This document shows positions 21,701 to 58,609 of a stretch of 64,000 nt of DNA, piece after piece. Where the stretch lies: contig NC_134033.1 of NCBI RefSeq assembly GCF_964204645.1, positions 8,378,655 through 8,442,654 of the forward strand, read 5' to 3'. Below the pieces are notes generated by a model that was given only the letters and a program-made list of their open reading frames with translations, was not told the DNA's origin and made no database searches. This DNA is from Tubulanus polymorphus (Eukaryota; Animalia; Nemertea). The position numbers and the translations under genes were made by a program. How positions within the stretch are numbered: position 1 is the stretch's first letter; every line of letters starts with the position of its first letter.

Positions 21701-21719
21701 TTATATAACAAAAAAATTA

Positions 21720-23741: not shown

Positions 23742-23771
23742 TTATATATCCTTAATTTTAACTTTATATTT

Positions 23772-25032: not shown

Positions 25033-25052
25033 TTATTTAACAAAAAAATTAA

Positions 25053-26504: not shown

Positions 26505-26520
26505 TTATATAATTAAAAAA

Positions 26521-27845: not shown

Positions 27846-27861
27846 TTATATAATTAAAAAA

Positions 27862-28824: not shown

Positions 28825-30778
28825 CTAATTTTTGAACAATTCATCAATTTTGTCCTTTGCCTCTAACGCGGCTTTACGTGTAGATGGAATTCGATCAGGA
28901 ATTTCCTTTGTAGTAACAACAGAAGGTTTCAATACATTGCTTTCAATTTCCAGAGGAAATAATTTCGAAATCGGTCTATTTGTAACACCGTTCGCGGTTT
29001 TAACTGTTGCCGATCTTACGAGACCATCAGTGCTCTTATGTAAGTGTTCAATGATACCTAGTTTCCATTTAAGTCTCGGTACATTATCATCATGTATAAT
29101 TACAACTGAACCCGGTTTGGCTATTTCTCTGTTATCTCCTGTTACTCTATGAAACTCCCGGAGATTTACCAAGTACTCCTTTTGCCAACGTAGCCAAAAG
29201 GAATAAATGAGTTTATTAATATAAGAATAACGTTTTGCTAAAGTATCTGAACCGGGAGAAAACGTTGTATCACCTTCGAGATTATCAATAGGACACAGTT
29301 TAGAATGAGCGGTTATACGCCTCCCCAGCATCAAATGAGATGGCGTTAGAGTCTCGTTTTCTTCTGGTTCAAAAGAAACATAAAGCAACGGACGGTCGTT
29401 CAGACACGACTCAATTTCACACGCTACAGTGTATAATTCAGTATCTGATACTAACGACCTACCTAAGACTTTCTTCAAACAGGATTTCATGAGACCTATC
29501 ATACGCTCCCAGAAGCCCCCGTGCCAAGGGGCCCGTTTCGTGATGAATTTCCAGTCGACGTTCCGTTGTGAAAAATGTCTGTGGATCTTCGAATCTTCGA
29601 AAATTTGCTTTAACTCCGAGTTAGCACCAATGAACGTAGAAGCGTTATCTGAAACGAGCATCCTTGGCACGGAGCGTCGGGCAACAAATCTCCTAAAAGC
29701 ATAGAGAAAGTCTTCAGTAGTATTACTATTTACAATTTCTATATGTACACCGCGCGAAACAGCGCACGTAAACAAACATATGTAGCGTTTCATACCGCCT
29801 CTACAACTAGAGGACCACAATAGTCCACCCCAACGTAACTAAATGCAGGTAATTCGTCAACTCTATACGATGGCAACGTTGGTGGATCAGGTTTTTTGAA
29901 TGGCTTTGCTTGTAGTCGACGACAAGGTACGCAACGTCGTACTTGCGATTTCACAAATTGTCGAATTTGTGGGATCCAAAATTTCCCTCTAATTTTGGCA
30001 ACCGTCGTAGAAATACCAAAATGAAACACATCAAAATGAGCGTTGCGCACAATTAAATCGGCCAATCGAGAGTTCTTTGGAATCAAAATAGGAAACTTTG
30101 TTTCGTCGGGCAGGGACGTATTTTGTAACCGAACTTTACAGCGGATGACGCCGTCACTGTCGAGAAACAACTGTAGTTGGTCAATCAATGGAATTCGGTT
30201 CCCCGATCTACCTGACAAAAAATCTAATACAACAGAATAATGACTACTTTGAAAATGTTTTACCCATATAAGCTGAGCGTCTGTAATCTCGGAAGCACTA
30301 AGTGGACCTTTAGTACGCTCAGTACTTGAAGATTTCATGTTACTTACAAATCGACGCACTAACGCTGTAATTCTCAGTAATCTATACAAAAGAGCAAATG
30401 AATCAATGTTAATAACTTCAAAAACTGAAAACGTATTGTTTCCGAGTATATTATCACAATTATTTATCTCAACATTACCGACAATCACAGTGGATTTCTC
30501 AACGAGAAGTTCAACTGGTCTACGAGACGCATTTACTAACCAATCAGGCCCGTGTAACCACAAATCACATTTCAAAACTTCTGACATATTGCCTCTCGTT
30601 AGCAAATCTGCTGGATTTGATGCTGATTGACAATAATGCCAATTTTCAACGGGTAACGTATTTCTTATTTCTTCGACTCGATTCGAAACAAATGTGGATA
30701 ATTTCTTGGCCGTGTTTAGCCAACCAAGCACTATTTGACTGTCGCACCAGGCAAATATTTTCATTGGGCGATCAGGCA
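28825..30778 (-). pseudogene. BEL RNase H (C-terminal part) and integrase, frameshifted near 29800
   Basis: AWCDSQIVLGW, FVSNRV.EI, NPADLLTRG, H..H...C..C, GVDYCGP, SDNASTF, APWHGGFWER and the C-terminal W.LG...DGLVRSA motif. Confidence 0.92.
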
Positions 30779-32940
30779 TCAGACCACAATTAGGTTAGTA
30801 GCTCGAAGATGCGTAGGGCCGGACCCCAAAAATAGTACCTAGAGTGAAGAAGAGGTCCCCCATAAATGTTGCCATAATTTCTGCAAATGGGATAGGTAAC
30901 GAATTTCGGTTATATGTATGAAATCCATTGATCCTGAGAGACAGATTGATGATGAAATAAGGGATTCCCTGGACTTTTTTTGCTTGGAGTAAGGGTACCA
31001 AACACGGTGGGGGATTCCCTCTTAGATATTTGGCTCGGATGTACTGGCATACCTGTACTGGGATACCCCTCCTTTCTAAAGGTTTGATTATTTCAAAAGT
31101 TGGGTTGGGTATGTGGGGCGAAAACCACTTCAATGCGTAGCTAAGATGCTGGCCTATGAGCCATAAGCAGGATTTCCCCTGAATTTACGCGCTTATATAT
31201 GAACTAAACTCTCGAATTTCTTTTTTTTACTATAGGATTTAGAAGATTGTCTTGAAGTCGTCTTGAGGCATTCATTGAGACCTAATTCGCTGATTTTAAT
31301 CAGTTTCATGGTAGGATTTGGTAATATTTTTGCTTGTAGAAGGCTAGAATAGCAGATTTCGGTCAATTTTTAAGGCATGAACCGTAAGATATTTTCTCGT
31401 AGGAGGCTCGGTCTAGGCTCATAAATTTATTTCATAAAGGCCATCCTTGCCCATGCAGAATAATCACATTAATTCAGCTTTCTTTGATTAAGTTATCTAG
31501 TTTGGCTGACTTTTTGGTGCCAGATACTGTCAGGAATTTAAGGGGTAGGGGAAATGCATATTTTCGTTGAAACCATGGCAACCGAAAGGACATTGTCAGA
31601 GGCCAGTTGTGATATTTTTCCTAACTAGTACTGGTGACAACTACGCTTGGTATATAAAATTCGTCCCGGCCGAATGCCTGTGGACGCAGTAGGGTTCATT
31701 GGAATTAGGCCTTCAGCGCAAGAAAACGCCAAATCTAAAGGTTTCAGCCAATTCGATGATGAAAATGGCATTTTTTCAAAAAATGCTTAAAGATTGTGTT
31801 TCTGATTTTTATCCATAGCCATATATTTATATCCATCAGTGAAAAAAATCTATCAAGTATTCAGAAAATGTTGTATAATTGTTTTATTCATATTTTGAAA
31901 TGAATGTTTGACTTAGATGATATTGATAGAAAACTTGGATTTTGTCGCATACGCGCGATTTGTGCATTAGCATGTATTTCCATGTGTAATTGGCCGAGAG
32001 CTATTGTATTGCGTTGTATAACTAGCTAGTCTCCACTCTTTCTAAAACTGTACAAAAACTAATGCTATTCTTAAGTTTGGGTACTAGTCAGGCATCAGAC
32101 CACAATTAGGTTAGTAGCTCGAAGATGCGTAGGGCCGGACCCAAAAATAGTACCTAGAGTGAAGAAGAGGTCCCCCATAAATGTTGCCATAATTTCTGCA
32201 AATGGGATAGGTAACGAATTTCGGTTATATGTATGAAATCCATTGATCCTGAGAGACAGATTGATGATGAAATAAGGGATTCCCTGGACTTTTTTTGCTT
32301 GGAGTAAGGGTACCAAACACGGTGGGGGTGTCACAAACCGTTTGATCAAATCTGTCAACTAAGGGTTTAGCTCGTAGCTCTATTGTTGTCATAGTGTACT
32401 GTGCTGTAATCCCCTTTTTACGCTACGAATTTCCTGCTATAAACTCGTTCGCATACCTTGTTCTCGTCGCAATACGCCACCAGCCTACTTGACGGACGGA
32501 TCTCGATGCATAGTTCGCAAACGAAGTTGTAAGTAATGTAATACATAGATTAATATTTGAATAATTAGACGTCATCTGTCTGATATGTAATTTGCATTTT
32601 CAGTTAACGGAAGTTCAATAAAGTATTCCTGTTAAAACCGTTTCGCAGTTACTTCTATGTTATCGCGAGGGCTCTGTCCCTGACAGGGGGATTCCCTTAG
32701 ATATTTGGCTCGGATGTACTGGCATACCTGTACTGGGATACCCCTCCTTTCTAAAGGTTTGATTATTTCAAAAGTTAGGTTGGGTATGTGGGGCGAAAAC
32801 CACTTCAATGCATAGCTATGATGCTGGCCTATGAGCCATAAGCAGGATTTCCCCTGAATTTACGCGCTTATATATGAACTAAACTCTCGAATTTCTTGTT
32901 TTTACTATAGGATATAGAAGATTTTGGAATAGTGGTCTGA
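30779..32940. mobile_element. Unclassified 2.16-kb insertion in BEL RNase H with about 470-bp direct repeats
   Basis: Removing it restores in-frame ...IDELPDRPMK. Ends TCAGACCAC...GTGGTCTGA (9-bp inverted). Direct repeats at about 30772-31248 and 32088-32922. Confidence 0.7.
32329..32685 (+). mobile_element. Solo LTR (357 bp)
   Basis: TGTCA...TGACA ends and 5-bp TSD GGGGG; the first direct repeat shows the empty site at 31009-31013. Internal TATAAA and AATAAA. Confidence 0.88.
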
Positions 32941-34192
32941 GCTCATCAATAACCCTAGACATAGAGTTCAATACATGAGTAACCAATCGTGCGCCAATCA
33001 ATGCACCCATTAGTTCGAGTTTAGGAACAGTGATTTCTTTGACTGGTGCCACCCTAGCTTTGGCTATTACTATAGACGATTCGTCTTTACAAACTAGGTA
33101 AACCACTGCGCCATAGGCTAAAGTACTACTATCGCAGAATACGTGTAACTCTATCGGGTAATCTGTGATATACGAATTCATAATCCGAGAGAATTTAGTA
33201 TTCAAACATTCGTGTATGTCATTTACGATACAATGCCATGTTTTACATAGTTCTTGAGACGATGGATCATCCCAGTCATAATTTTGTTTCCAGATTGACT
33301 GCAAAAGGATTCTAGATCGAATGGTGACTGGTAAAAGTAAACCAAGTGGATCGTGGATAGAAGCAGCCTTTTGTAGGATGATATGTTTTGTCAATTGGGA
33401 ATCACTAGACATGTCTTCGGTAACAAATGACATGAAATCACCCTCAACATGCCAGTACAGCCCGAAAACTTTAACTACGGACGATTTCTCCAAAATTTCT
33501 TGTTTTGCAGCAGACTTCTGGAGCTCTGAGGAATTAGACGACCAACATCGTAAGTTAAAGTTAACTTCGGAGAAACAATTACGTGAATCATGGAGAAATT
33601 TGACGGCTTCAAATTCAGAACGAACGCTAGTGACCACATTGTCTACATAAATGTCTCTCAGAAGCTGCTGTGACAAAGGAGAATCAATATTCCGTAGATG
33701 GAAAATAATGAAACTATTCAACAAAAATGGAGAGCACGTAGCTCCAAACAAGATGCGCTTGAATCTTAACACGATAAACTCACTCTCGGGATCATCGGGA
33801 TTAACCAACCAAAAAAATCTAGTAGCATCGCGACACGACGGTTTAATAGATAACTGCAGGAAAGCCTTTTCAATGTCTGCAGTAATACCGAACTTTAAAA
33901 TCCTAAAACGTATCATAATTGAGCAAAGATCATTCAATAACGGAGGTCCACTCTCTAAGCAATCGTTTAAAGAAACTGATGACTTCGATTCTCGACAACT
34001 ACAATCGAAAACTATCCGAATAGGCGTGGTTGATGATTGTCTGAAAATTGGATGGTGCGGTATATAGTGCTCGTGACTATCTACAATGGAAGGATCAGTT
34101 ACAATCTCAATGAAATCTTGTGCTAATTGATCTCGGATGATTTGGCTATAACTGTCTAATAAACCTGGCGTCTTAGCTAAACGTCTAACCAT
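32941..34192 (-). pseudogene. BEL reverse transcriptase and RNase H (N-terminal part)
   Basis: YIPHH, RIVFDCS, ADIEKAFLQ, FGATCSPFLL, YVDN, LHVFCDSS..AYGAVVY and PKLELMGA. Confidence 0.92.
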
Positions 34193-34846
34193 GGAACGAG
34201 TCGTGCTTTTGCGAGGTTATAATTAGTTGGCAAAGTGTCGTGAATTCTTTTCCACGGCAAATCAACCATATATCGACCATCAACTAATTGAATGGATGAA
34301 TTACAAAACTCATCTAGAAACGAAGTATCACGGCTTGTTGGAGACTCAATACCAATAGTTTCTAATGACCAAAAACGCTTAAGATCTGCGATATCAGGCT
34401 CAACTATAATAGAAAGAGTATGAACATTACAATTTGCCGTGTTACGATCGTTAAACTGACCGCCGATGAGATACCCTAATTTAGATGGAACAGCAACCGG
34501 ACCACTTTCAGATTTAACAAATTCATTATCAACAACCTACGAGTAACGATATGTCAAACAAATCCACTAAATAACTAGGTGGGTGAGCGAGTTTAAGGGT
34601 TTTGAATTCAGCTAAACAAGAAACAGAATCAGTAGAAATTCGTAGTGGTCTGGTTATCTCCGGTACAACGATAACATCTAACGAAACAATTGAGTCATCA
34701 TACTCGCAAACGACATCTACGCGAACAACATTGACTCTTCTGAAACCGGTACTTCTACCCCCAAAACCGCTTAAGTCTATAGACTCAGTTCTATGAGTAT
34801 CTACCCCTAGCTCGTCGGCTAATTTTGAGGTAATAAAACTACGGTG

Positions 34847-36310
34847 CTACCCGTCGTCTAACAACAAATGACCACTGACCCGATTTCCGTTGGCCTGTAC
34901 AGGTGCTATAGCAGTTTTCAGATAAACCGTTGATGGATAAGAAACTATATGATCATCAATAACTGAATGTTGACAAATCTCTGATCCCGAATGATTATCA
35001 ACGATGTGATTTGATTCTAAATTTGAATCAGAAACTGCATTTGTCCCAGAAACTGTACAAGATACGTGCTGCGTAACGGCGTCCGTAAGAGACCTATCTA
35101 CGATAGAATTAATATTCAAACGACTTGGAAAATTAGCCCCGTGTAAGCTGGTATGATGGCGCTTACGACAAGATCTACAGGTTGACCTTGAAGGACATGT
35201 ATACATGGTATGCTGACCCATACAATTGAAACATAATTTGTTCTTCAATACGTAATCTAAACGTGACTGTGCTGTGGTGAGAACGTCGCACTCAACCGGA
35301 AAATGCCTATCTGAACTACAATAACGACATTTGAATTTACGAACAGTGGTGGAATTTCCATTCGCATGGTGACCAGCATTTTTCCGGTTTTGATGTACAT
35401 GGAGTGTTGTCATTGTACCAAATGATGACGATCCCGGTGACGTGTCGCAAACTTCTAATATGTTTATCTCAGTCAATATAGCGGAACGGAGATCTTCCAG
35501 ATTCAACTCAAAGTTACCGCGCGCTCGTGCAATGTTCCGTTTTATATCTGCCGGCAATTTATTCAATAGAATTGGTACCAGAAGCGTGCCATATGAATCG
35601 GTTGATGTTTTTTAAGAGTCTAAACTGCGAATATGCATTTCAATCTTATCATAGAATTGGCGCAAAGATTTCAAATTGTAATTCGGAGAATTCAATTCAA
35701 TTAGTTGATCCAAATTCGCTTCCGTTATTTTATGCGCCTGTCCGAAACGGTTTTCAAGCAGTTCTTTCGCCTTTTCATAGTTAATACTGGTCAATGGCAA
35801 ACCTTCAATAGTTTGTTTCGCCTCATTTACCAGGTGACATTTCAAGTGACTGAATTTTTCTACGGGAGTTAAGTTTCTTTGCTCGTCAACCGTGGACTTA
35901 AATAGATCCCAAAAAGAACACCACTCGAGCAAATCTCCTGCAAATTTCGGTAACTGTAATTTCGGCAAAGATACACGCTTACTGTTCGTTACTGAATTTT
36001 TGTCCGCAACGTTGGCAGACAACTGATTAAAAGCTAGTTCCAGAATGTTAATTTCAGTAAGACGCTCACACAGATATTCATCTCCCGTGACGATAAATTC
36101 ACTCAAATCTTTTCCTCTTAATTCGCACGCGATTATCAAGTCTTTTTCTATTTCTTCTAATTTCGAAAATTTATGTCTTAGAGTGAAAACGGTAGACATA
36201 CCTTGAGCCGCGTCTTTTCCTTTCAAATGGTCATCACATTTGTTTTTCCATCGCGTGAATTGACCACGTTGCACCTTCCGTAGCTCCTTCAATCCTTCAA
36301 AGTCTGACAT
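34847..36310 (-). pseudogene. BEL Gag (DUF1759-like region plus three Cys/His knuckles) to the protease start
   Basis: LPKLQLPKFAGD..EW.SFWDLF, EKFSHLK, CRYC...H...C, CFNC..H...C, C..C..RHHTSLH and LLLDDG*. Frameshifted or stopped. Confidence 0.88.
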
Positions 36311-36987
36311 ATCGTGAAATTCTGGTTCCTTCCCTCTTCAAATTCTGACAAATGGATCCGGCTCGAGGGACCAAAATGTAGTGACTGTGAACTACAAGGA
36401 CGAACAGCGAACAGCGAACAGCGACGAGACATACGACCCAATCCGAATCCAACGAATACGTACAGCGAACGAAAACAGAGAAGAACTCAAGAGACAACAA
36501 GGCAGTGTCTACAGTTACAAGGTTTGGTACGGTCTAACATTTATTGTGTTCAAAGGTTAGAGGAAAACGATCGGAATAATGCATTTCTATGATTGGTCGA
36601 GAGACGTCAGTACTTCATGGTTCATGGCGAGAACACTTCAATGACTTTGTATTCCAGATAATCTGCTCGTCGTGACATATTGGTTACCGCGTTATATAAA
36701 CTCATTGCATCGCCAACTGATTGAAAATCTCTATGTGAAATCTTCTGATCATATAATTCTTTGTTAATATAATCCACATAGTTTTGTCTCTTTTCTCTAT
36801 ATTCTTCTGCTGCTTTATTGTATTTTTCTAATGCTAAGTTATGTCTTTTTTGTTCGGTTAATGATCCATTTTTATCAATATGCTTAGATAAATAACCGCC
36901 ACCAGTAAATGCTAAAGCGTTAACAATTGCCGATCCTATAATAGTTATAACTGCAAAAGCCATGTATTTAGCAAAATAGTTATGTAT

Positions 36988-37207
36988 TTATATGGGAGGA
37001 ATATATTTTTGTTTTTCTAAATAATCAATAGTTAAATTAGATAAAGTTACTGCTGATTAATTTTAAAATATCATTTATATCAAATCTATCAACATTAACA
37101 CTTCCCATTTTGAATACTTTTTTTAATACCATTGAATAACCAACAGTTCCAACTGATAGTAATGCTCCATTATATAATCCAGTTATTATCCACTTATTAT
37201 CACTCAT
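36988..37207 (-). pseudogene. Element A small hydrophobic protein (MSDNKWIITG...DYLEKQKYIPPI)
   Basis: TAAATG start; homolog of B 51259-51479; frameshifted. Confidence 0.6.
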
Positions 37208-37225
37208 TTATTTATCAAAAAAATT

Positions 37226-37593
37226 ACTATCTTCAAAATATTTAGTTAACTTAGTTATAATTATTTCAACATTTATTTCATTACTAGTTTCATTTGTATA
37301 TATTTCAATTATTATTTTTTAATATCATCGATGATAAAATCTAACTATTTCATCTAATTTTTTCTAAGGTCTTCATCTAATTCATAAAATCTTAAAGATT
37401 CTCTAATTAAATTAGTAATCTTTTCTACATTTAAAGTTTCTTTATCTATTGTTGTTTCATACTCAAATGTTGTTTCATTAGAAAATGCAATATTTTTAAT
37501 ATGTGTAATTACATCATTAATGTTAAATTTCATTTCTTTCTCACGTTTAAAATCAAACCCAAAACATATACTCGGTCCAACAGTTATATTCAT
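37226..37593 (-). pseudogene. Element A hypothetical protein (MNITVGPSICFGFDF)
   Basis: Homolog of B 50903-51243. Confidence 0.6.
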
Positions 37594-37609
37594 TTATATA
37601 ATGAAAAAA

Positions 37610-38365
37610 TTACTCTCTACATTTTATAACTAATTCATATATCACAGGAAAGTTATTTAAATCAATTAAATAACCATTATGATTTCTTATTTCTAATTTG
37701 AAATTATTGAAATGTGGAATGAAAGGTTTAAAATCACATTCTGTTAAATTATAATTTATTTGAGTTCGAAATTGTTTGACATTTTTTAATGGTAAAATAT
37801 TTAATAAACCAGAATTACAAATTGTATCTTTAGTTGCTTCGAATGTTTTTGTAGGATCAATTAGATTACAATAAATATAGAAGTGCGTAAAAGGTATTAT
37901 ATTTGGTGTAGTATCAACATTTGAATAAACTTTATTTGGATTAACTCCTAGCATTTTAGCTAATGGTTTTCTTACTATGAATTTATATTGTTCATTAGTT
38001 AACTTTTTTCTTATTTTATTAGTACTATCAATTTTATTAAATTTAATGTTAAACCCAACAGATTCACCCACTTTTAACCAAGCTCTTTTATTAATTTCTT
38101 GAGATAATGTTACTAAATTATATAATCCTGGTCTTAGAAATAGATGATACCATTTATCCATATTTCTATCATGAATCATAAACAATCTATGATCAAAACT
38201 TTTATCCGATTTATTGTAAAAAGAATTACATAAACTTATATTAACTAATTTTAAATCAACACAATTCTTGAATTCTCTATCTAATTGAACTAATAAATTA
38301 TGTGATTTATGATTTGTAAGTTTTCTAGAATCAACAAATATTCTATATTCTTTTAATTCTACCAT
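37610..38365 (-). CDS. Element A minor capsid (penton-like, single jelly-roll) protein
   Basis: VDSR...L.V.L, NS.YN, G.YN...L..EIN, LAKMLG, YIYCNLID and LEIRN.NG.LID.NN.PV.YEL pattern of Polinton/virophage pentons; intact 251 aa. Confidence 0.75.
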   Translation of the reverse strand: MVELKEYRIFVDSRKLTNHKSHNLLVQLDREFKNCVDLKLVNISLCNSFYNKSDKSFDHRLFMIHDRNMDKWYHLFLRPGLYNLVTLSQEINKRAWLKVGESVGFNIKFNKIDSTNKIRKKLTNEQYKFIVRKPLAKMLGVNPNKVYSNVDTTPNIIPFTHFYIYCNLIDPTKTFEATKDTICNSGLLNILPLKNVKQFRTQINYNLTECDFKPFIPHFNNFKLEIRNHNGYLIDLNNFPVIYELVIKCRE

Positions 38366-38433
38366 TATTTATAACATAAGAAAATTAACGCTCGTCACTA
38401 AAAATAAATTTTTATAAAATTTTTCCTAAATAA

Positions 38434-39746
38434 ATGGATGAGAAGATACCATGCGAAATTTGTGGTGAACTTCTAAGAAAAAGTAATATGGCTCAAAATA
38501 TGAAAAAACATGATGAAAATTATAAACCCCCTAAAATAAACTGCCGAAAATGTAATAAATTATTCTCAAGGAGTTATGTTAAAAAACATTTAGAGAAGTG
38601 TAAAATTAATGGCGCAACGGTTAATGTTGATAGTAACGAAAGTAATAGTAATTCTGTTGAAGTTGAACCTGAAATTATTTGGAAAAGACCTTTCTTATTC
38701 TATGATAAGGATATTATGAAAGTTCATTTCTGCGAGCCTTGTCGAATGAAATTTAGTCCTGAAAATATAGAAGCTTGGGAGAATCATCAATTTCGTAAAA
38801 TACATATAGATAAAATTTCTAATAAATTTGAAGCAGAATTCAATGGAAGAAAAAATAATATATTTGAAAAAATGAAATATGAGAAAATGTTACCAGATAA
38901 TAAAGAAACAGTTGAAAAGTTAAAACAATATAATGAATTAACAAGAAAAACATTGTAAATATTGTAAATTGATTATTACAACAAGTAATTCAAATCTACA
39001 TAATAGAACAATAAAACATAAAGAAAACGTAAGAAAATACCAAGAGCTTTAATGAAGATCTATTACCAATAAATTATAAACAAAAATGCCCACAATGTAG
39101 TTATGCGACCTTAAGACAAGAAGGTACTGTGTTATTTTGTAATGAATGTGGATGGCAAAGAAATTTATGGGGTGAAGAAAAAACTAGAGATTTTCTCATA
39201 GAACCAAAATTAAATTATCTAGATGAAATTTTTAAAATATTTTCTATAGAAGATCGTACACCAGAATATATGCAATGGCTTGAAAAAATGAAAATAATAG
39301 AAAATAAAAATGGCGAAATAACTAAAAAAGATATTATAAAAACAATTATTCCATCAACATTTAACACAAAACGAAAGAAAATGTATTTATATTTATTATT
39401 TAACGATTATTATGAAAAACCTAAATTAACAGAAGATGATATGAAAAAAACATTCAAACAAATATTAATGTATTATTTGGAAAATAGAATAACAGATTCA
39501 ATTAATTATGGATTCTTTTTAAATAAGATTGTAAATTATTTAAACATCGATATTATAATTCCATTTGACGAATTAACAAACAAAAAGAAACAAAGAGAGC
39601 GAGATGAAATGTGGCACAATATAACACGTTATTTAAATGAGAAAAATGAAATGGAAGAACCTAAACAAATTATACAAGAACAATTAAATGAAAAAGAAGA
39701 AACCAATAGTGATTTCGAGTTTGATGATATTGATTTTATAATTTAA
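38434..39746 (+). pseudogene. Element A multi-C2H2 zinc finger fused to a poxvirus VLTF3/A2L-like late transcription factor
   Basis: Fingers CEIC, CRKC..H...C, CEPC..H....H and CKYC..H....H, then a CPQC..CNEC ribbon and SINYGFFLNKI. Small indels near 38950 and 39040 break the frame. Confidence 0.7.
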
Positions 39747-42700
39747 TAACCATAAGGTAATGTTTTTATACCATCATCTAAAATATGCCTTTTATCATCA
39801 AATGGATTCAAACTAGTTTTTTCAACTTCATTAATGTACATCTCGTGATCTTGTGATCTTAAACAATTCATTTTGTGTTTCATTACAATTGAGTTATATA
39901 AACACTTTATATAATCTTGAAATTCTATATGTTTATCAACCACATGTTTTGTTATTCCTTTTAACTTTTTAGCTTCATGATCTTTTGTTCTATAACTATA
40001 CAATTTACTTCTTATCCCGACAAATTCAATCATTTCATCACCCCCTAATTCATCTTTAAATTTACCAGGAATCTTTTCATTATCATTGCTAAATAGTTCA
40101 TGATCTTTAGGATAATTGCTAAAATCGAAATGATGTTTTAATGTTTTTAAGTCTTTTGTTATGTCATTTGTCTTGATTTTTAGTATGTAGGCGTCAGTAT
40201 TTTTGGCTATTAATGGAAATCCACAGTTAAATGTACCATGTTCAGTTGATAAATCATAAACATAATCTGTTGGGTTATATATTTCAAATAAATCTTTAAC
40301 TTCTTCTGTTAACTCATTTTCTACATGGCTTAAATTAAAACAATTTGGTTTAGATTTAATCAATCCAATATTCATATTAAAACCTAATGAATTGCATAAT
40401 ATATTTAATCCTGATATAGCAACTTTTCCTTTTTGAGCTAAAGATATAGTTTTGCGGTTTTTGAAACTTTTAGTACCATCTGCTGCGTAGAATCCAATGA
40501 AGAACCATTTTCTTAAATTATTTTTTGCATTTAATACATAATCTGGAACTATCTTTTCTTTAGTTGAAGTATTACTTTTCACTATTGCATGAATATAGAA
40601 TTCGTCATTATATTTTATAGCAAAATCTTTAGGATTATTCACATGTATTCTATAACATTGCGATGATTTCATAACATCTATGATTTTAAATGTTTTATGT
40701 GAATAAACTTCTTCACAGAATTTCTTTATTCTTTCTAATAATTTCAAATCTTGATTGCATAAATACCAACAATATTGAGTGTGATAAAGATAATTATACA
40801 CACCTGCTGAACCATCACCCATGAAAAATCCTTTGATAAAATATTCTTTTTCTTCTAATGTTTCGGGTTCTATATTATAAATATTATCAATAATTTCATC
40901 GAATGACATATGATTCATTCTTTGGAAAAATCTTTTATGTAATAATTCATCTCCAATTTTTATATCAGTTGGTTTTATTTCATCGCCATTTCGTTTAATT
41001 AAACTATGATCTTCTGTAACATCTACAAACCCTAATTTAGTTCTAACTCTATAGATTTTCTTATTTGTTTTATGCCTAATAATATTCTTTAATTTTTTCC
41101 ATCCATTTCTTGTCCAAACATCCATTAAGCCATTTATTTGTATTAATTCTTTTTCACCATATGAAATATAACATTCATTTTGTTTTGGAATTATTTCTGA
41201 AATTCTTCTTATCAATATTTTATCATTACATTTTAATAATATTGGGGTGTCAGCTGTTACAGAATCAAAATATAATATTTCAATATGCTTTTCCCCAAAA
41301 AGTGGTTGTAAAACATTATAATAAAAATCATACATTAATAATTTTGATACTTCTAAAACAGTTGAACCAATGAATATAGGTTTATTAAATTTCATTGACG
41401 TTCTTTTTAATTTAACTGCTGTTAAATAATCTTCAAATCTTTTATTTCCCAAATGTCTAGGACTTGATTGTAAATGTCTTAATCTTTCAGAATTATTTAC
41501 TAATTCAATATCATTTCTATTTCTAATATTTTCACATGTTTTACCATAAAAACTATTATTCATTAATTTAAAGAAATCTTTTTCAAAATCTGTTTTTGAT
41601 ATGGTTCTCTGTTGAGTATTAAAATCTATATATTTTTCTAACCACTTCGATTGATTAAATTCAATATATCTATGTACTTTCTTTAATTTCATTCCTTGTT
41701 TTAGATAAAATTTTAACATTCTATAATGAACAATGTAATTGTATTTATTATTTTGAGTAAGTATTAATTTTTCTGTAAAATTATGATCTTTCGGTTTTAT
41801 TTTCTTCTTTCTTCTGGTATTCACTTAAATAACTATCATCTACGACTAAATGTTCTGGGCAATAAGGTAAGTTTCTTGTTTTAAACTTTATATTTTCAGG
41901 ATATTCTAAATCAACTACAAAGAAATAACCAATTGGTGCTTCATCTTTTAAACTCGCAATTGCGCTTTCCCAATCAGTTTTATCACCATTTTCAACTTCT
42001 GTTAATATAAAATTTTTATATGGTTGAGGTTGCATCATTGCCCAGCCATATAAATTATTGGCGTCAATATATAATAATTTATATTCATCATTTGCTTTAA
42101 AATATCTATCTCCCATAACACCACTAATTCCACCTCTAATTGATTTTTCAAATTATAAAACAATATCTATATTTGTTAACAAATCCATTTTTGTATCTGT
42201 AAATTTTAAACCACATTGCCAGGTTAAACCAGGACTAGAGTAGCAATAGCAGGGATCAACATTAAAATGATTCAAATTGACTTCTCTAAATTTTTCAAAT
42301 ATATCGGCTAATATCATAACATCTGATTTTAAGTAAAGATCAACTAATTCACCATGATTTTTAAAATTGAAATGATTCCATATATTCAATGTTTTATGAA
42401 AAACTTCATCTTTCACGTACTCATTTTTTAATTGATCATAAAATTGTTCTTTCATTAATTTTGTTTCTTTGAAATCATCATGCGTTTTATAAAATGAGTA
42501 AGGTATTGCGCCTTTATTTCTCAATAATTTAAAATCTTGTTCATTTGGATAATAATATCGAGTTATTATAAAATCATTATCAACTAAACTTTTTGATAAA
42601 TTATCTAATGAACTTGCTAGAAATCTATAAGAATCTAAAAATCTAATGCAACCAAATTGAAATGAAATATAATTTTCAGATGTTTTAGCTAATAGTTTAA

Positions 42701-43613
42701 AATCATATTTTCTTACATTTACACCATTCATAGCATTATATTCTTCTATTTCTTGATTAATTGCGCCCGATATTCCCGATAATTGTTTTATAAATAGATG
42801 GGCATCATAGCCTGATAAATCATGAAATAATATTGGAACGAAATTTACTTTTTTTAGCTTGTAAATTACAATCTTCATGAGCAGCTCCATGATATTTTGA
42901 ATTTAAATGATCATGATCTCTAACTTTTTTATCAAATGAATAAAAACGTTTTTCACAATAACAACAATGGGTTGCATAATTAAAATCAATTTCATCTTCT
43001 TTTGTCATAACTATTCTTTTATTTTTGTTTAATAATTCTGCAAAATCACTTTCTAATTCAATTATTTTGTTACAAAAATTATTAACTACATCTTCACCTC
43101 TAAAAGAAATATATTGACTTTCATATAATTCAGGATAATTTGATTTTATGTAAATTCCATAAGCAGCAGCTCTTTGATGAACTTTTTTAATTGTATTTAT
43201 AATTGGCGGGTCTTGAATTATATCTTCATTTAGTTCATTTCCTTTATCCATTGATTTAATAATTGCTTTTTGTTGTATATTTCTTTTCTATCTTGATTAG
43301 TTAATTCTTTATTCAACGATTCAAAATCCCCATAAATTACAAATGGAACAATATTTTTAAATTTACGATTAGTAAATCTCAATTTATAATCTTTTTCTGT
43401 TGGCATTATTAATTTACAAAAATCTTTATTATCACATAATTCTTCATGTTTTAATAATGTATTCTCAGTCATTAATTTAGATAAACATTTTCAACATAGA
43501 TAAATTTTATTATGGTGATCGCTTTCTGTTCTAAAGAATAAATCAATTTGTTTTAACCACATATAATGTTCATTTTCATCTTTTTTTTAAATATAACAAA
43601 TCTATAGCATTTT
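39743..43613 (-). pseudogene. Element A pPolB, 3' part (exonuclease, EndoVII/HNH-like insert, palm) containing an intein
   Basis: YGDFES, CCYC...VRDHDHL...GAAH..CNL, HDLSGYDAH, FLDSYRF, YLKSDV, YIDANNLYG.AM, KLMNNSFYGK, YFD[intein]TDA, PGKFKDE and KKLKGI. Confidence 0.93.
40199..41263 (-). mobile_element. Intein (355 aa) with LAGLIDADG homing endonuclease in element A pPolB, reading frame intact
   Basis: Block A SVTADTP, block B DVTEDH, LAGLIDADG helices FIKGFFMGDG and FFIGFYAADG, block F YVYDLST, block G IAKN/T. Splits YFD|TDA. Confidence 0.93.
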
Positions 43614-43698
43614 AGTAATTAGAAGATGGCGTTTTCATACCAGAGTACTAGAGTACTAGACACCACTCATCACCACAAGTAATTTTTTTTCCTAATAA

Positions 43699-46600
43699 AT
43701 GGGGGAGAATGAACACCAGCCAGAAAACAATAATGTTAATGAAAATCAATATCATTGTCCATATTGTAAAAAATACATTAATAAATCTAATAAATCTCAT
43801 CATGAAAAATCTGCAAATCATATAAAAAATATAATAGATTTTAAAACTCCAGAAAATTCCAATGAAAGAAAAGAACGATTAGAAAATATGAATGTGGATG
43901 AAATAAAATGTGAAGTTTGTAATGAATTTATAGTAAAAAGGAATTATAAAAGACATATCAAATCACAAAAACACCATCAAAATTTGAGTAATGATATTTT
44001 AGGAATAGATTATTTCGATGATAAACCTCAACAAGTAAAAAAACCAACTTCAAAAACTAAATCCATTTCAAATAAACCTTACATGGAAAATGTTAGAAAT
44101 TATATTGATTCACTAGAAATAAAAGATACAATTGAAATTTTAGAAACATTACATTCTAAAATTGGTCCTGCGGCTATTATATTTAGATTCTTTAAAGGAA
44201 CAACAATAGAAGATTATAGTAAATTTAATGAAATAATAGAAAAAATACTAGTTTTGATAACAGATGTTGAATATCCAAAAATTAATATCTCTGGGTAAGT
44301 AAGTTTTATAAAGTCAGAAGATAAAATGGATTATAGTATTCAAACACTCTCTGAAGAAATAATTTCAAAAACGCAAATAAAAGAGAAGTTAGAAAAAATA
44401 TTTAATGAATTTAAACGTCATATTGAAGAGAGATATTTAAAGGGTTCTGGTTTAACACTGAATGGAATTATATTTTTAGATTTAAATGTTTATAATACAA
44501 AAAGGAATAAAACATCAAAAAGTAAAACAATGTTTAAAAATGACTCAAACTTTACAACAGAAAAGGATATTAAAGCATCAAGTTATATTAAATTACCATT
44601 TACAACAAAAGCAGTAATAAATGTTCAAAATGAAGATAATAAATGTTTTCTATGGTCAATTATTAGTTGCTTACACCCAACAGAAGATATTACGCATAGT
44701 TTTAGAATAACAAATTACCGGAAATATGAAACATTAAATAAAATTGATCAATATCCAGTAACTATAAAAATGATACCCAAAATAGAAAAAATTAATAAGT
44801 TAAGAATAAATGTATTCGAATTAATGCAATTACCAAAGACAAAAGGTGAAAATATTAAAGATTATACATTGGAAGCTTTATATTTAACAGAATATTATGA
44901 TGATGAAAATGCTATAGATTTGTTATATTACAAAAAAGATGAATATGAACATTATATGTGGTTAAAACAAATTGATTTATTCTTTAGAACAGAAAGTGAT
45001 TTTAACAGTCATAAAATCTATCTATGTAGAAAATGTTTATCTAAATTTAGAACTGAGAATGCGTTACTAAAACATAAAGAATTATGTGATAATAAAGATT
45101 TTTGCAAATTAATAATGCCAACAGAAAAAGATTATAAATTGAAATTTACTACTCATAAATTTAAAAATATTGTTCCATTTGTAATTTATGGGGATTTTGA
45201 ATCGTTGAATAAAGAATTAACTGATCAAGATAGAAAAGAAATATATAACAAAAAGCAATTATTAAAATCAATGGATAAAGGAAATGAATTAAATGAAGAC
45301 ACAACACAAGACCCGCCAATTATAAATACAATTAAAAAAGTTCATCAAAGAGCTGCTGCATATGGAATTTATATAAAATCAAATTATCCCGAATTATATG
45401 AAAGTCAATATATTTCTTTTAGAGGTGAAGATGTAGTTAATGATTTTTGTAACAAAATGATTGAATTAGAAAGTGATTTTGCAAAATTATTAAACAAAAA
45501 TAAAAGAATATTTATGACAAAAGAAGATGAAATTGATTTTAAGTATGCAACTCATTGTTGTTATTGTGAAAAACGTTTTTATTCATTTGATAAAAAAGTT
45601 AGAGATCATGATCATTTAAATTAAAAAATATCGTGGAGCTGCTCATGAAGATTGTAATTTACATGCTAAAAAAGTAAATTTCGTACCAATATTATTTCAT
45701 AATTTATCAGGTTATGATACCCATCTATTTATAAAACAATTATCAAGGAAATTGGGCACAATTAATCAAGAAATAGAAGAATATAATGCTATGAATGGTG
45801 TAAATGTAAGAAAATATGATTTTAAACTATTAGCTAAAACATCTGAGAATTATATTTCATTTCAATTTGGTTGCATTAGATTTTTAGATTCTTATAGATT
45901 TCTAGCAAGTTCATTAGATAATTTATCAAAAAGTTTAGTTGATAATGATTTTATAATAACTCGATATTATTATCCAAATGACCAAGATTTTAAATTATTG
46001 AGATATAAAGGTGCAATTCCTTATTCATTTTATAAAACACACAATGATTTTAATGTAACAGAATTATTAAAAGATCAATTTTATGATCAATTAAAAGAGG
46101 AGTATGTGAAAGACGAAGTGTTTAATAGAACATTAAATATTTAGAACCATTTTAAGATGAAAAATCATGGGGAATTAGTTGATTTATATTTAAAATCAGA
46201 TGTTATGATATTGGCTGACATATTTGAAAAATTTAGAGAAGTTAATTTGAATCATTTTAATGTTGATCCTTGTTATTGCTACTCTAGTCCTGGTTTAACC
46301 TGGCAATGTGGTTTAAAATATACAAATGTAGAATTAGATTTATTAAAAGAACCAGATATGGTTTTATTATTTGAAAAATCATTTAGAGGTGGAATTAGTG
46401 GTGTTATGGGAGATAGATATTTTAAAGCAAATGATGAATATAAATTATTATATATTGACGCCAATAATTTATATGGTTGGGCAATGATGCAACCTCAACC
46501 ATATAAAAATTTTATATTAACAGAAGTTGAAAATGATGATAAAACTAATTGGGAAAGCGCAATTATGAGTTTAGAAGATGAAGCGCCAATTGGTTATTTC

Positions 46601-48767
46601 TTTGTAGTTGATTTAGAATATCCCGAAAATATAAAGTTTAAAACAAGAAACTTACCTTATTGCCCAGAACATTTAACCGTAGATGATAGTTATTTAAGTG
46701 AATACCAGAAGAAAATAAAACCGAAAGATCATGTTTTTACAGAAAAATTAATACTTACTCAAAATAATAAATACAATTACATTGTTCATTATAGAATGTT
46801 AAAATTTTATCTAAAACAAGGAATGAAATTAAAGAAAGTACATAGATATATTGAATTTAATCAATCGAAGTGGTTAGAAAAATATATAGATTTTAATACT
46901 CAACAGAGAACCATATCAAAAACAGATTTTGAAAAAGATTTCTTCAAATTAATGAACAATAGTTTTTATGGTAAAACATGTGAAAATATTAGAAATAGAA
47001 ATGATATTGAATTAGTAAATAATTCTGAAAGATTAAGACATTTACAATCAAGTCCTAGACATTTAGGAAATAAAAGATTTGAAGATTATTTAACAGCAGT
47101 TAAATTAAAAAGAACGTCAATGAAATTTGATAAACCTATATTCATTGGTTCAACTGTTTTAGAAGTATCAAAATTATTAATGTATGATTTTTATTATAAT
47201 GTTTTACAACCACTTTTTGGGGAAAAGCATATTGAAATATTATATTTTGATTCTGTAACAGCTGACACCCCAATATTATTAAAATGTAATGATAAAATAT
47301 TGATAAGAAGAATTTCAGAAATAATTCCAAAACAAAATGAATGTTATATTTCATATGGTGAAAAAGAATTAATACAAATAAATGGCTTAATGGATGTTTG
47401 GACAAGAAATGGATGGAAAAAATTAAAGAATATTATTAGGCATAAAACAAATAAGAAAATCTATAGAGTTAGAACTAAATTAGGGTTTGTAGATGTTACA
47501 GAAGACCATAGTTTAATTAAACGAAATGGTGATGAAATAAAACCACCTGATATAAAAATTGGAGATGAATTATTACATAAAAGATTTTTCCAAAGAATGA
47601 ATCATATGTCATTTGATGAAATAATTGATAATATTTATAACATAGAACCCGAAACATTAGAAGAAAAAGAATATTTTATCAAAGGATTTTTCATGGGTGA
47701 TGGTTCAGCAGGCGTGTATAATTATGTTTGGGGTAATAAATATTGTTGGTATTCATGCAATCAAGACTTAAAATTATTAGAAAGAATTAAGAAATTCTGT
47801 GAAGAAGTTTATTCACATAAAACATTCAAAATCATAGATGTTATGAAATCATCGCAATGTTATAGAATACATGTGAATAATCCTAAAGATTTTGCTATAA
47901 AATATAATGATGAATTCTATATTCATGCAATAGTGAAAAGTAATACTTCAACAAAAGAAAAGATAGTACCAGATTATGTATTAAATGCAAAAAATAATTT
48001 AAGAAAGTGGTTCTTCATTGGATTCTATGCCGCAGATGGCACTAAAAAATTTACAAAGGATAAAAAGATAACATTTGCACAGAAAGGAAAAGTATCAGGA
48101 TTAAATATATTATGCAGTTCATTAGGATTTAATATGAATATAGAATTAATTAAATCTAAACCAATTTGTTTTAATATAAGGCATGTAGAAAAAGAATTAA
48201 CAGAAGAAGTTAAAGATTTATTTGAAATATATAACCCAACAGATTATGTTTATGATTTATCAACAGATGATGGAACATTCAATTCTGGGTTCCCATCAAT
48301 CCAAAAAAAATACCGACAGTTACATACTAAAAATCAAGACAAATGACATAACAAAAGACTTAAAAACATTAAAACATCATTTTGATTTTAGCAATTATCC
48401 CAAAGATCATGAACTATTTAGCAATGATAATAAAAAGATTCCTGGTAAGTTTAAAGATGAATTAGGGGGTGATGAAATGATTGAATTTGTTGGGATAAGA
48501 AGTAAAATGTATAGTTACAGAACAAAAGATCATGAAGCTAAAAAGTTAAAAGGAATAACAAAATATGTGGTTGATAAACATATAGAATTTCAAGATTATA
48601 TAAAGTGTTTATATAACTCAATTGTAATGAAACATAAAATGAATTGTTTAAGATCAGAAGATCACGAGATGTACATTAATGAAGTTGAAAAAACTAGTTT
48701 GAATCCATTTGATGATAAAAGACATATTTCAGATGATGGTATAAAAACATTACCTTATGGCCATTAA
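43699..48767 (+). pseudogene. Element B pPolB (N-terminal zinc fingers, EndoVII/HNH insert, intein)
   Basis: Colinear ORFs 43699-44298, 44326-45624, 45752-46144, 46157-48346 and 48222-48767. Nonsense codons at 44296 and 46142; frameshifts near 45622 and 48303-48310. Confidence 0.93.
47252..48311 (+). mobile_element. Intein with LAGLIDADG endonuclease in element B pPolB
   Basis: YFD|SVTADTP ... KN|TDS with the same blocks as in A. One extra A in an A8 run just before the terminal Asn. Confidence 0.92.
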
Positions 48768-50073
48768 AACATAAAATCAATATCATCATACTCGAAATCA
48801 CTATTGGCTTCTTCATTTTCATTTAATTGTTCTTGTATAATTTGTTTAGGTTCTTCTTCCATTTCATTTTTCTCATTTAAATAAAGTTTTATCTTGTTCC
48901 ACATTTCATCTCGCTCTCTTTGTTTCTTTTTGTTTGTTAATTCGTCAAATGGAATTATAATATCTATGTTTGAATAATTTACAATCTGATTTAAAAAGAA
49001 TTCATAATTAATTGAATCTGTTATTCTATTTTCCAAATGATACATTAATATTTGTTTGAATATTTTTTTTATATTTTCCATATCTTCTTCTGTTAATTTA
49101 GGTTTTTCATAATAATCGTTAAATAATAAATATAAATACATTTTCTTTTGTTTTGTGTTAAATTTTGACGGAATAATTGTTTTTATAATATCTTTTTTAG
49201 TTATTTCACCATTTTTTTCTATTATTTTCATTTTTTCAAGCCATTGCATATATTCTGGTGTATGATCTTCTATAGAAAATATTTTAAAAATTTCATCTAG
49301 ATAATTTAATTTTGGATCTATGAGAAAATTTCTAGTTTTTTCTTCACCCCATAAATTCTTTTGCCATCCACAATCAACACAAAATAACACAGTACCTTCT
49401 TGTCTTAAGGTCGCGTAATTACATTGTGGACATTTTCGTTTATAATCTATTGGTAATAGATCTTTTCTTACGCCTTCTTTATGTTTTATTGTTCTATTAT
49501 GTAGATTTGAATTACTTGTTGTAATAATCAATTTACAATATTTACAATAATATGTTTTTCTTGTTAATTCATTATATTTTTTTTTCTAACTTTTCAACTG
49601 TTTCTTTATCTGGTAACGTTTTCTCATATTTTATTTTTTCTAATAAACTATTTTTTCTTTCATTGAATTCAGTTTCAAATTTATTAGAAATTTTATCTAT
49701 ATGTAATTTACGAAATTGATGATTCTCCCAATCTTCTATATTTTCAGGGCTATATTTTACTCGACAAGGCTCGCAGAAATGATCTTTTATATTATCCTTA
49801 TCATAGAATAAGAAAGGTCTTTTCCAAATACCTTCAGGTTCAACTTCAGCAGAATTACTATTACTTTCATTACTATCAACATTAGCCGTTGCACCATTAA
49901 TTTTACACTTCTCTGAATGTTTTTTAACATAATTTCTTGAGAATAATTTATTACATTTTGGACAGTTTAGTTTAGGGGGTTTATAATTTTCATCATGTTT
50001 TTTTCATATGTCGAGCCATATTACTTTTTCTTAGAAGTTCACCACAAATTTCACATGCTATCGTCTCATCCAT
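48764..50073 (-). pseudogene. Element B zinc finger / VLTF3-like fusion gene
   Basis: TAAATG start at 50073. ELTRKTYYCKYCKLIITT reads through into ORF 48764-49531 (CPQC...CVDC, KIFKQILMYHLEN, SINYEFFLNQI). Upstream frameshifts lie in T runs. Confidence 0.72.
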
Positions 50074-50131
50074 TTATTAGGGAAAAAAATTACTTGTGGT
50101 GATGAGTGGTAATTTTTTTATGTTATAAATA

Positions 50132-50886
50132 ATGGTAGAATTAAAAGAATACAGAAAATTTGTTGATTCTAGAAAACTTACAAATTATAAATCACATAAT
50201 TTACTAGTTCAATTAGATAGAGAATTTAAGAATTGTGAAGATTTAAAATTAGTTAATATAAGTTTATGTAACTCATTTTACAATATATCGGATAAAAGTT
50301 TTGATCATAGATTGTTTATGATTCATGATAAAAATATGGATAAATGGTATAATCTATTTCTAAGAACAGGATTATATAATTTAGAAACATTATCTCAAGA
50401 AATTAATAGAAGAGCTCGGCTAAAAGTGGGTGAATTTGTTGGGTTTAACATTAAATTTAATAAAATTGAAAGTACTAATAAAATAAGAATAAAGTTAACT
50501 AATGAACAATATAAATTCATAGTAAGAAAACCATTAGCTAAAATGCTAGGAGTTAATCCAAATAAAGTTTATTCAAATGTTGATACTACACCAAATATAA
50601 TACCTTTTACGCACTTCTATATTTATTGTAATTTAATTGATCCTACAAAAACATTCGAAGCAACTAAAGATACAATTTGTAATTCTGGTTTATTAAATAT
50701 TTTACTATTAAAAATGTCAAACAATTTGGAACTGAAATAAATTATAATTTAACTGAATGTGATTTCAAACCATGTATTCCACATTTTAATAATTTTAGAT
50801 TAGAAATAAGAAATCATAATGGTTATTTAATTGATTTGAATAACTTTCCTGTGATATATGAATTAGTTATAAGATGTAGAGAGTAA
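50132..50886 (+). pseudogene. Element B minor capsid (penton-like) protein, frameshift near 50712
   Basis: Homolog of A 37610-38365. Confidence 0.75.
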
Positions 50887-50902
50887 TTTTTTCATTATAT
50901 AA

Positions 50903-51243
50903 ATGAATATAACTGTTGGACCGAGTATATGTTTTGGGTTTGATTTTAAACGTGAGAAAGAAATGAAATTTAACATTAATGATGTAATTACACATATCAA
51001 AAATATTGCATTTTCTAATAAAACAACATTTAAGTATGAAAAAACAATAGATAAAGAAACTTTTAACGTAGAAAAGATTACTAATTTAATTAGAGAATCT
51101 TTAAGATTTTATGAATTAGATGAAGATTTTATCATCGATGATATCAAAAAATAATAATTGAAATATATACAAATGAAACTAGTAATGAAATAAATGTTGA
51201 ATTAATCATCACTAAGATAACTAAATATTTTGAAGATAGTAAT
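50903..51243 (+). pseudogene. Element B hypothetical protein
   Basis: ORF 50903-51154 plus a frameshifted tail; homolog in A. Confidence 0.6.
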
Positions 51244-51258
51244 TTTTTTGATAAATAA

Positions 51259-51479
51259 ATGAGTGATAATAAGTGGATAATAACTGGATTATATAATGGA
51301 GCATTACTATCAGTTGGAACTGTTGGTTATTCAATGGTATTAAAAAAGTATTCAAACTGGGAAGTGTTAATGATGATAGATTTGATATCAATGATATTTT
51401 AAAATTAACATTAGCATTTACTTTATCTAATTTAACTATTGATTATTTAGAAAAACAAAAATATATTCCTCCCATATAA
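51259..51479 (+). pseudogene. Element B small hydrophobic protein
   Basis: TAAATG start; homolog of A 36988-37207; frameshifted. Confidence 0.6.
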
Positions 51480-51503
51480 ATGCGTAATTATTTTACTAAA
51501 TAA

Positions 51504-51921
51504 ATGGCTTGTGCAATTATAACTATTATAGGATCGGCAATTGTTAACGCTTTAGCATTTACTGGTGGCGGTTATTTATTTAAGCATATTGATAAAAATA
51601 GTTCATTAGGAAAACAAAGAAGACATAATTTAGCATTAGAGAAATAAAGCAGCAGAAGAATACAGAGAAAAACGACAAAACTATATGGATTATATTAACA
51701 AGGAATTATATGATCAGAAGATTTCACATAGAGATTTTCAATCAGTTGATGATGCAATGAGTTTATATAACGCAGTAACCAATAAAGAAAAATTACATCT
51801 ATACAAACCAAAATTATCAGATTATTATACCCCAAGTAAAGAACAACAGAAATATGAAATAATTTGGATTTTAGGTGGAACAGTTATTGTTATATTTGTA
51901 GCATATAAATTTACTAATTAG
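51504..51921 (+). pseudogene. Element B conserved small protein (IVNALAFTGG)
   Basis: TAAATG start, small deletion near 51645, C-terminal TM segment. Confidence 0.7.
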
Positions 51922-51940
51922 TAATTTTTTTTCTAAATAA

Positions 51941-52375: not shown

Positions 52376-52391
52376 TTTTTTAATTATATAA

Positions 52392-53777: not shown

Positions 53778-53793
53778 TTTTTTTATTATATAA

Positions 53794-55223: not shown

Positions 55224-55243
55224 TTAATTTTTTTGTTAAATAA

Positions 55244-56465: not shown

Positions 56466-56495
56466 AAATATAAAGTTAAAATCAACGATATATAA

Positions 56496-58590: not shown

Positions 58591-58609
58591 TAATTTTTTT
58601 GTTATATAA

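Follow-up and report, generated by a model that had tools for sequence, protein, structure and literature searches.

Inteins inserted at the pol-c site of family B DNA polymerases (PolB) are known from giant viruses. The mimivirus PolB carries one at YGD/TDS (PMC549080; here and below the slash marks the insertion point), and PolB inteins have been described for the Phycodnaviridae, Iridoviridae and Mimiviridae (PMC5784728). In Klebsormidium, Tetrabaena and a labyrinthulomycete, inteins were found within viral-like DNA polymerases on nuclear scaffolds (PMC10710043); among published cases, these polymerases of endogenous viruses in algae come closest to the locus described here. The protein-primed PolBs (pPolB) of Polintons are known to contain HNH and VSR endonuclease domains (PMC10748475), and it has been speculated that the HNH, GIY-YIG and VSR insertions came from intein invasions, the accessible part of that paper making no mention of LAGLIDADG endonucleases (PMC11071308).

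Inteins have been described as absent from metazoan genomes (PMC8529194), and no animal inteins are listed in section 5 of PMC5784728 as far as it is accessible, in agreement with the initial annotation of this locus, according to which canonical splicing inteins are not an established feature of animal nuclear genes. The word intein does not occur in the accessible text of PMC10748475, PMC8502044 and PMC8097293, and it appears in other contexts in the accessible parts of PMC12220804, PMC13768754, PMC5718144 and PMC3671162. Neither a pPolB nor an animal nuclear genome with a Hint-bearing intein, nor an earlier cataloguing of this family, was found in the full-text literature searched, a coverage that ends short of most subscription papers, Repbase and InBase. 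As far as the searched print shows, both the host gene class (pPolB) and the host kingdom (animal) are new for pol-c inteins.

In the window, i.e. the whole stretch of 64,000 nucleotides analysed here, the pPolB gene of a Polinton is interrupted by an in-frame insertion of 355 codons without any stop (copy A, Table 1), whose translated flanks read EILYFD and TDAY. Motif C of PolB has the form YxDTDS, and the insertion point separates its two aspartates. The same YxD/TD(S/G) point is used in archaeal and viral loci, which bears out the earlier assignment to the pol-c site.

Table 1. Positions of the intein copies, Polinton elements and neighbouring features within the window.
Feature	Position	Strand	Remarks
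Intein copy A	40199..41263	(-)	355 aa, Ser1 to Asn355, open frame; inserted at YFD/TDA, motif C of pPolB
N-terminal Hint (splicing) region, aa 1-120	40904..41263	(-)	Ser1, Thr83-x-x-His86; TIGR01445 above cut-off; all-beta in model
Monomeric two-motif LAGLIDADG homing endonuclease domain, aa 121-320	40304..40903	(-)	PF14528; Asp150 and Asp262 kept
C-terminal Hint region, aa 321-355	40199..40303	(-)	Asp337 of block F, GFPL indel motif, Lys-Asn terminus
pPolB gene of element A, 3' part (carries intein)	39743..43613	(-)	frameshifts near 42850 and 41810; PF03175 on 42156-42902
pPolB gene of element A, 5' part	60250..61460	(-)	separated by insertion of element B
Polinton element A	19341..61545	(-)	terminal inverted repeats starting AGTA (87/89 columns identical); perfect 6-bp target duplication TACTTG
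Element A genes	integrase 22615-23730; A32 ATPase 22006-22614; capsid-like near 24394-25032		
Polinton element B, 16.6 kb	43614..60249	(+)	60/60 terminal inverted repeats; 6-bp target duplication, one mismatch
Element B genes	rve+chromo integrase 56496-57623; ATPase 57679-58230; capsid-like 55244-56309		
Intein copy B	47252..48311	(+)	DNA 94% identical to copy A; frameshifted in last codons
Decayed, older third pPolB	14957..18593	(-)	about 70-73% DNA identity; stops just before motif C
BEL/Pao LTR retrotransposon inside element A	28449..36677	(-)	LTRs 292/301 identical
Host type IV collagen gene, last exons	965..5583	(+)	collagen triple-helix and three C4 (NC1) exons

Copy A has all four nucleophile positions and three assisting residues in place. 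It possesses Ser1, Asn355 and Thr+1, as is characteristic of class 1 inteins, as well as Thr83 and His86 of block B and Asp337 of block F. Its penultimate residue is Lys354 instead of His, and Gly occupies the His column of block F. Both histidines assist in class 1 inteins without being universal; 77 of 202 relatives, from viral polymerases as well as other hosts, likewise terminate in Lys-Asn, and a penultimate His is present in 6 of 10 Polinton inteins. The two claimed LAGLIDADG helices with their catalytic aspartates were recovered as GFFMGDG at aa 145 (Asp150) and GFYAADG at aa 257 (Asp262). The intein_Nterm (TIGR01445; 30.9 bits, cut-off 24.5) and LAGLIDADG_3 models (PF14528; 28.2 bits, cut-off 22.5) matched copy A, and the Pfam Intein_splicing model (PF14890) gave an E-value of 3e-7, yet remained below its cut-off (30.7 vs 35.8).

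An AlphaFold2 model of copy A built from 27 sequences (pLDDT 88.4, pTM 0.89) predicts a Hint domain into which a LAGLIDADG domain with two motifs is inserted. Its best match among the solved structures was PI-PkoII (Z 28.4, rmsd 4.3, 309 aligned), followed by the intein homing endonucleases TliVMA, PhoVMA and PI-PfuI. The Hint fold scored Z 18-19 against mini-inteins with an rmsd of about 2, and the nuclease domain matched I-DmoI, PI-PfuI and PI-SceI. The top five rows of a BFVD fold search include phycodnavirus, pandoravirus, marseillevirus and megavirus PolBs. The intein models, the residues and the predicted fold thus agree with the initial annotation, and copy A is confirmed, on the level of sequence and model, as a class 1 intein with a LAGLIDADG endonuclease domain, belonging to the pol-c allele family by site, residues and fold.

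According to class 1 splicing chemistry (PMC4031507) Ser1 would form an ester, assisted by Thr83, His86 and Asp337, which would then be attacked by Thr+1, and Asn355 would cyclise. The catalytic aspartates of YxD-TDS would thereby be rejoined, so that an occupied element is predicted to need splicing in order to replicate. The freed intein protein may subsequently cut empty YxD/TDS sites in other Polinton DNA; if the break were then repaired with an occupied copy as template, the intein would be transferred together with a few flanking codons.

The intein resides in an endogenous virus-like transposon and not in a host gene. The Polinton context proposed initially was corroborated by the terminal inverted repeats, the 6-bp duplications and the pPolB, integrase and ATPase genes. 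Elements A and B each have these three genes and a weak capsid match. PF03175 (pPolB), PF00665 (rve) and PF04665 (A32-like ATPase) scored above cut-off, the Capsid_N match was below cut-off (E 0.001-0.004), and no match to a cysteine protease was obtained among the ORFs scanned of the window. Element B is nested in the polymerase gene of element A in the opposite orientation, with its target duplication at 43608-43613 and 60250-60255, and the two elements share about 89-95% DNA identity. Both are relics, as their polymerase genes are broken, that of B by stops or frameshifts, one of them within the last codons of its intein, and that of A by the insertion of B and by its own two frameshifts. 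The second intein copy reported previously is real, but not intact, showing a two-codon gap in addition to the frameshift in the last codons. The type IV collagen exons and the BEL/Pao element on the contig confirm the animal genome, as had been claimed.

Two further observations concern the surroundings of the elements. The third pPolB is cut off just before motif C by unrelated sequence (14486-14960 (-)) without Pfam match, which presumably resembles a remnant of a CACTA-type transposase. Furthermore, remnants of additional nested Polintons are suggested by terminal-repeat-like pieces at 9700-12300 and 63100-64000 and by an ORF with zinc finger (10751-11368).

Based on a search with the 355 aa (best 120 of 295 matches, plus all 41 of a second listing) the intein is most similar to those that occupy this site in other Polinton pPolBs, namely P0002 (62% identity), P0003-P0007 (47-49%) and P0010, P0011, P0013 and P0131 (40-42%), followed by those of RNA-primed PolBs (30-41%). 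A redundant set of 348 complete inteins was extracted, comprising 11 from pPolBs, 323 from RNA-primed PolBs, 5 from topoisomerase II and 9 from unclassified proteins, and none of the 348 lies in a pPolB outside the Polinton clade. The Polinton inteins form one clade in seven of seven trees (support 97-100), which spans both pPolB groups. P0006 belongs to the other group, its exteins being without BLAST match to the group-2 reference (E 1e-4), and carries an intein 47% identical to that of the window; this occurrence requires a transfer. The initial annotation had placed the jump in the protein-primed PolB of the window itself. This part could not be maintained, since its closest homologues (62% to 40%) are other Polinton inteins and the jump would consequently have been made once, in an earlier Polinton. 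A single entry of the intein into Polintons is well supported.

In IMG/VR a search with P0001 retrieved 37 loci, none of which is a pPolB by class, and none of the 57 candidates obtained with P0002 represents a free-virus Polinton carrying this intein. A C-terminal pattern detected five loci in the same database, i.e. two giant-virus PolBs and three chance matches, without any free-virus Polinton, and no pPolB was present among the best 80 of 130 loci of a JGI scan. Atlas matches to P0003 were all < 0.9 and are regarded as leads only. The intein-bearing Polinton pPolB P0011 is filed in NCBI under a clam symbiont genome bin on a 2.5-kb contig, which probably represents host DNA.

A giant-virus PolB, not necessarily that of mimivirus, is the likely donor of the Polinton inteins. 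Near the C-terminus, a deletion of one residue and a G-[FYTS]-P-L motif (GF-PL) are common to the Polinton inteins and one subgroup of the inteins in viral PolBs, and two bins of this viral subgroup carry NCLDV major capsid genes. Both were grouped in five of seven trees (88, 95, 94, 90 and 93/92); this grouping was absent in FastTree and lost upon removal of the last 14 residues, where a wider grouping remained at 99. In the careful tree, rooted on archaeal pol-c inteins, the Polintons are nested in the viral set at 96/97, the outgroup sitting on a long branch with a root position that shifts between trees. Three alternatives were not rejected by AU tests: a position of the Polinton clade external to the viral inteins (p 0.475), a basal split between P0006 and the remaining Polinton inteins (p 0.476) and a grouping of the GF-PL viruses away from the Polintons (p 0.503). 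Since these alternative placements are left standing, the direction of transfer is one that we infer and do not prove. The suggested origin from an RNA-primed giant-virus PolB intein is retained as likely on account of the sequence and fold searches, the shared indel and the five trees, but it is not enforced by the AU tests. The comparison of intein and extein phylogenies recovered a single Polinton clade whose group-2 members broadly follow their exteins and which includes P0006 of the other pPolB group; the AU tests do not fix the exact sister of this clade.

The target codons of the viral sites differ from those of copy B by 3-9 of 18 nt (best 70 rows), which makes cross-cutting plausible and may have made the first jump possible. 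As the genes are otherwise unalike and share no flanking homology, this jump would have needed non-homologous repair; the accessible text of PMC549080 makes the same argument for archaea and mimivirus. Co-infection is presumed to have been its setting.

The intein family extends to several other hosts. Five topoisomerase II proteins (P0008, P0081, P0095, P0114 and P0379) carry it at DxD/TDG, a site like that of the polymerase, and appear by sequence to represent a second non-allelic jump. A pol-c intein of the family is also encoded by P0097, named Pol delta catalytic subunit, of the green alga Chloropicon primus. The PolB inteins at L118:6001-6984 and L119:6001-6984, one in a Promethearchaeota bin and the other in another archaeal bin, group with the viral and not with other archaeal pol-c inteins and could be the result of a transfer or of mis-binned viral contigs. 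GF-PL-type inteins occur furthermore in divergent PolBs of ~1200 aa (P0018, P0019, P0020 and P0294), a family that only weakly resembles either reference polymerase, and two giant-virus PolB inteins (L189, L190) combine a Polinton-like NCGFP end with decayed nuclease motifs.

Empty and occupied alleles were detected both in reads of the species and in related pPolBs, as the proposed screen had called for. About 55% of the sampled words were contained in four runs of one study, all under a single species label. Raw reads of a second study with this label (X6; 1,934 Mb or about 12% of the run; likeness 85) yielded 12,079 reads mapping to 39000-43600. Among them, 45 reads with 27 start places join 40189 to 41264 with nine letters between, a net skip of 1065 nt that corresponds exactly to the intein; empty and occupied alleles therefore coexist in the host species. 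The nine joining letters are three synonymous spellings of Thr-Asp-Ser, and the flank of copy B was matched by 10 of the 45 reads and not by the other 35. The six bins within the intein had a mean read depth of 209, compared to 390 for the five bins on its flanks, a ratio of 0.54 that is rough owing to the likeness filter. The intein copies per genome amount to about 22 (200 Mb assumed) to 216 (2 Gb assumed), a range that reflects the assumed genome size only. Copy A has substitutions absent from most reads; together with its broken gene this means that it need not be an active copy.

The N-extein has 7,486 relatives; of the best 120, 107 are empty, including the closest one (P0163, 86%), 5 are occupied and 8 uncallable, a ratio biased by the length filter of 403-1283 aa, which drops full-length occupied proteins. 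Occupied, full-length and open pPolBs of 1504-1693 aa are represented by P0002, P0003 with six cluster mates, P0006, P0010 and P0013. The 15 of 136 members listed for the 90% cluster of P0003 include seven occupied (1537-1539 aa), five empty and three uninformative ones. The five listed empties are 96-98% identical over 300 upstream residues, every one being different at the site, and one empty allele of the cluster is 100% identical to an occupied mate over 142 upstream residues. On an extein tree of 48 hand-chosen rows (18 occupied, 30 empty) occupancy switches 12 times, seven of these switches being forced by starred branches, and its clustering is no greater than in shuffles.

The pN/pS ratios between copies A and B (intein 0.19, nuclease 0.20, exteins 0.17-0.28 with one short piece at 0.59) show purifying selection on the intein. 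Selection on an occupied polymerase would imply protein splicing in the cells where the elements replicate, because the polymerase would work only after splicing. Ser1, TxxH, the block F Asp, the terminal Asn and both nuclease aspartates are kept in all ten full-length Polinton inteins (80% de-duplicated). Both aspartates are kept in 176 of 202 non-Polinton inteins, and 56 of 337 non-Polinton relatives are shorter than 310 aa. A Cys five residues before the site was found in 14 of 18 occupied alleles but only in 2 of 94 empty ones (three non-Polinton rows caught by the pattern were dropped; the related copies are not independent), a flank pattern that co-conversion would give. Taken together, the pN/pS ratios, the kept catalytic residues, the scattered occupancy and the linked flanks point to homing, and the intein is likely to be still spreading between Polinton copies.

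On the predicted DNA-reading strands of the nuclease (aa 151-170, 262-278 and 297-316; about 40316-40813) 18 codons are changed and 8 silent between A and B, compared to 1 and 14 in the rest of the domain. This enrichment of substitutions on the beta-sheet (Fisher p 1e-4) is post hoc, recurs in one of seven comparisons without the window and is treated as a lead. In a large family (P0178-P0281, P0425-P0432) the empty sites often read D-CDS or D-TDA and not D-TDS, with Cys at +1 in 35 of 90 and Ala at +3 in 19 of 90. Such altered empty sites may possibly represent an escape from the nuclease. Hypervariability of the empty site was not observed in this comparison: positions +1 and +3 vary, yet rank only 49th and 61st of 260 columns among copies that are related and not independent. 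We advance only tentatively, and with rather less than even confidence, the fuller scenario in which the intein crossed from a giant virus and is now actively homing among integrated Polinton copies of animal germlines, the empty copies escaping by way of their own catalytic motif and the DNA-reading strands of the nuclease changing in turn.

Several other explanations have to be weighed against homing and a giant-virus origin. The intein might still splice without homing any longer, having entered early and been inherited vertically, with empty alleles arising by precise loss and recombination. The broad agreement of the intein tree with the extein lineages within the group-2 pPolBs would fit this assumption, as would the empty allele that equals an occupied one upstream of the site; A and B are moreover mosaic across the polymerase gene outside the intein as well (84-100% in 200-nt windows), and repeated precise loss or ordinary recombination can also scatter occupancy. 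However, an unused nuclease would be expected to decay, as the short relatives illustrate, whereas that of the Polintons is under purifying selection and retains both aspartates throughout; the presence in the other pPolB group requires a transfer, and a flank residue is tied to occupancy across subclades. Taking this into account, a loss of homing seems unlikely. Only little more credit, and still that of an improbable alternative, is given to a different direction of transfer, in which the Polinton inteins would be an old lineage, sister to the viral pol-c inteins, or would have been passed on by a Polinton-like virus of protists or by a cellular polymerase instead of coming directly from a giant virus. 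The non-rejecting AU tests, the long-branch outgroup with its unstable root and the occurrence of the family in green-algal Pol delta, topoisomerase II and two archaeal-bin PolBs leave room for such a course, which is at odds with the nested position of the Polinton clade, its one-residue deletion shared with giant-virus inteins, the 202 distinct non-Polinton as opposed to 10 Polinton inteins at 80% identity and the confinement of pPolB inteins to the Polinton clade among those extracted.

It seems very unlikely that copy A and its relatives are dead, non-splicing remnants that inactivate the polymerase and are mobilised by empty helpers. The missing penultimate His and the broken state of both window elements could be read in this way, but the Lys-Asn end is common among the relatives, A and B diverged under purifying selection, and full-length, open occupied pPolBs exist. 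An assembly artefact or contaminating viral DNA can practically be dismissed in view of the nested insertions with target duplications, the LTR element and the collagen IV gene on one contig and of the raw reads contributed by the second study.

We therefore favour, with considerable though not complete confidence, that the window harbours a full-length intein in motif C of an animal Polinton pPolB that was likely acquired once from a giant-virus PolB and has likely been spread by homing since. The family is a qualified exception to the absence of inteins from metazoans: although confined to a virus-like transposon, it is passed on with animal chromosomes, and in many copies. With it the range of inteins comes to include protein-primed polymerases, and genes exchanged between giant viruses and animal Polintons can be traced by it as a marker. 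Since a single genome contains numerous occupied and empty copies, homing, escape and drift of the nuclease could be followed there in a natural setting. If active homing as outlined above should hold true, animal chromosomes would be shown for the first time to house a true intein family, which would directly attest that giant viruses and animal Polintons were once present in the same cells.

Among the known systems the animal Hedgehog proteins share the Hint fold with copy A (1at0, Z 15.8). They possess no nuclease and perform no extein ligation, and intein structures score far higher against the model of copy A. A Hedgehog/BIL reading was ruled out by the presence of the nuclease and by the precise empty alleles. 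The HNH and VSR domains resemble the intein in that they are nucleases within Polinton pPolBs, and relatives of the present pPolB also have an endonuclease VII/HNH domain. In the accessible descriptions, however, those domains are fixed, lie outside the active site and have no reported Hint domain, in contrast to the polymorphic combination of Hint and LAGLIDADG domains in motif C.

The archaeal PolB pol-c inteins (Thermococcales and others, L123-L159) use the same insertion point and have the same architecture, and PI-PkoII, the best fold match of copy A, is another archaeal PolB intein; they differ by an identity of about 28-35%, by His-Asn ends and by their location in cellular RNA-primed polymerases. 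The inteins of algae and protists, as far as they are described in the accessible text of PMC10710043, likewise entered the nucleus of a eukaryote as part of the polymerase gene of an endogenous virus. They belong, however, to giant-virus-type genes, whereas the present family is found in an animal, in a pPolB and in multiple copies with occupied and empty alleles. The giant-virus PolB pol-c inteins share with the Polinton inteins the YxD/TDS site, the Ser1/Asn/Thr+1 residues, the dual LAGLIDADG motifs and a BLAST identity of 30-41%, one subgroup also the GF-PL indel, and they provide the best structural matches in BFVD. Unlike them, the intein described here occupies the protein-primed polymerase of a 17-kb integrating element, is present in many copies in animal chromosomes and forms a clade of its own.
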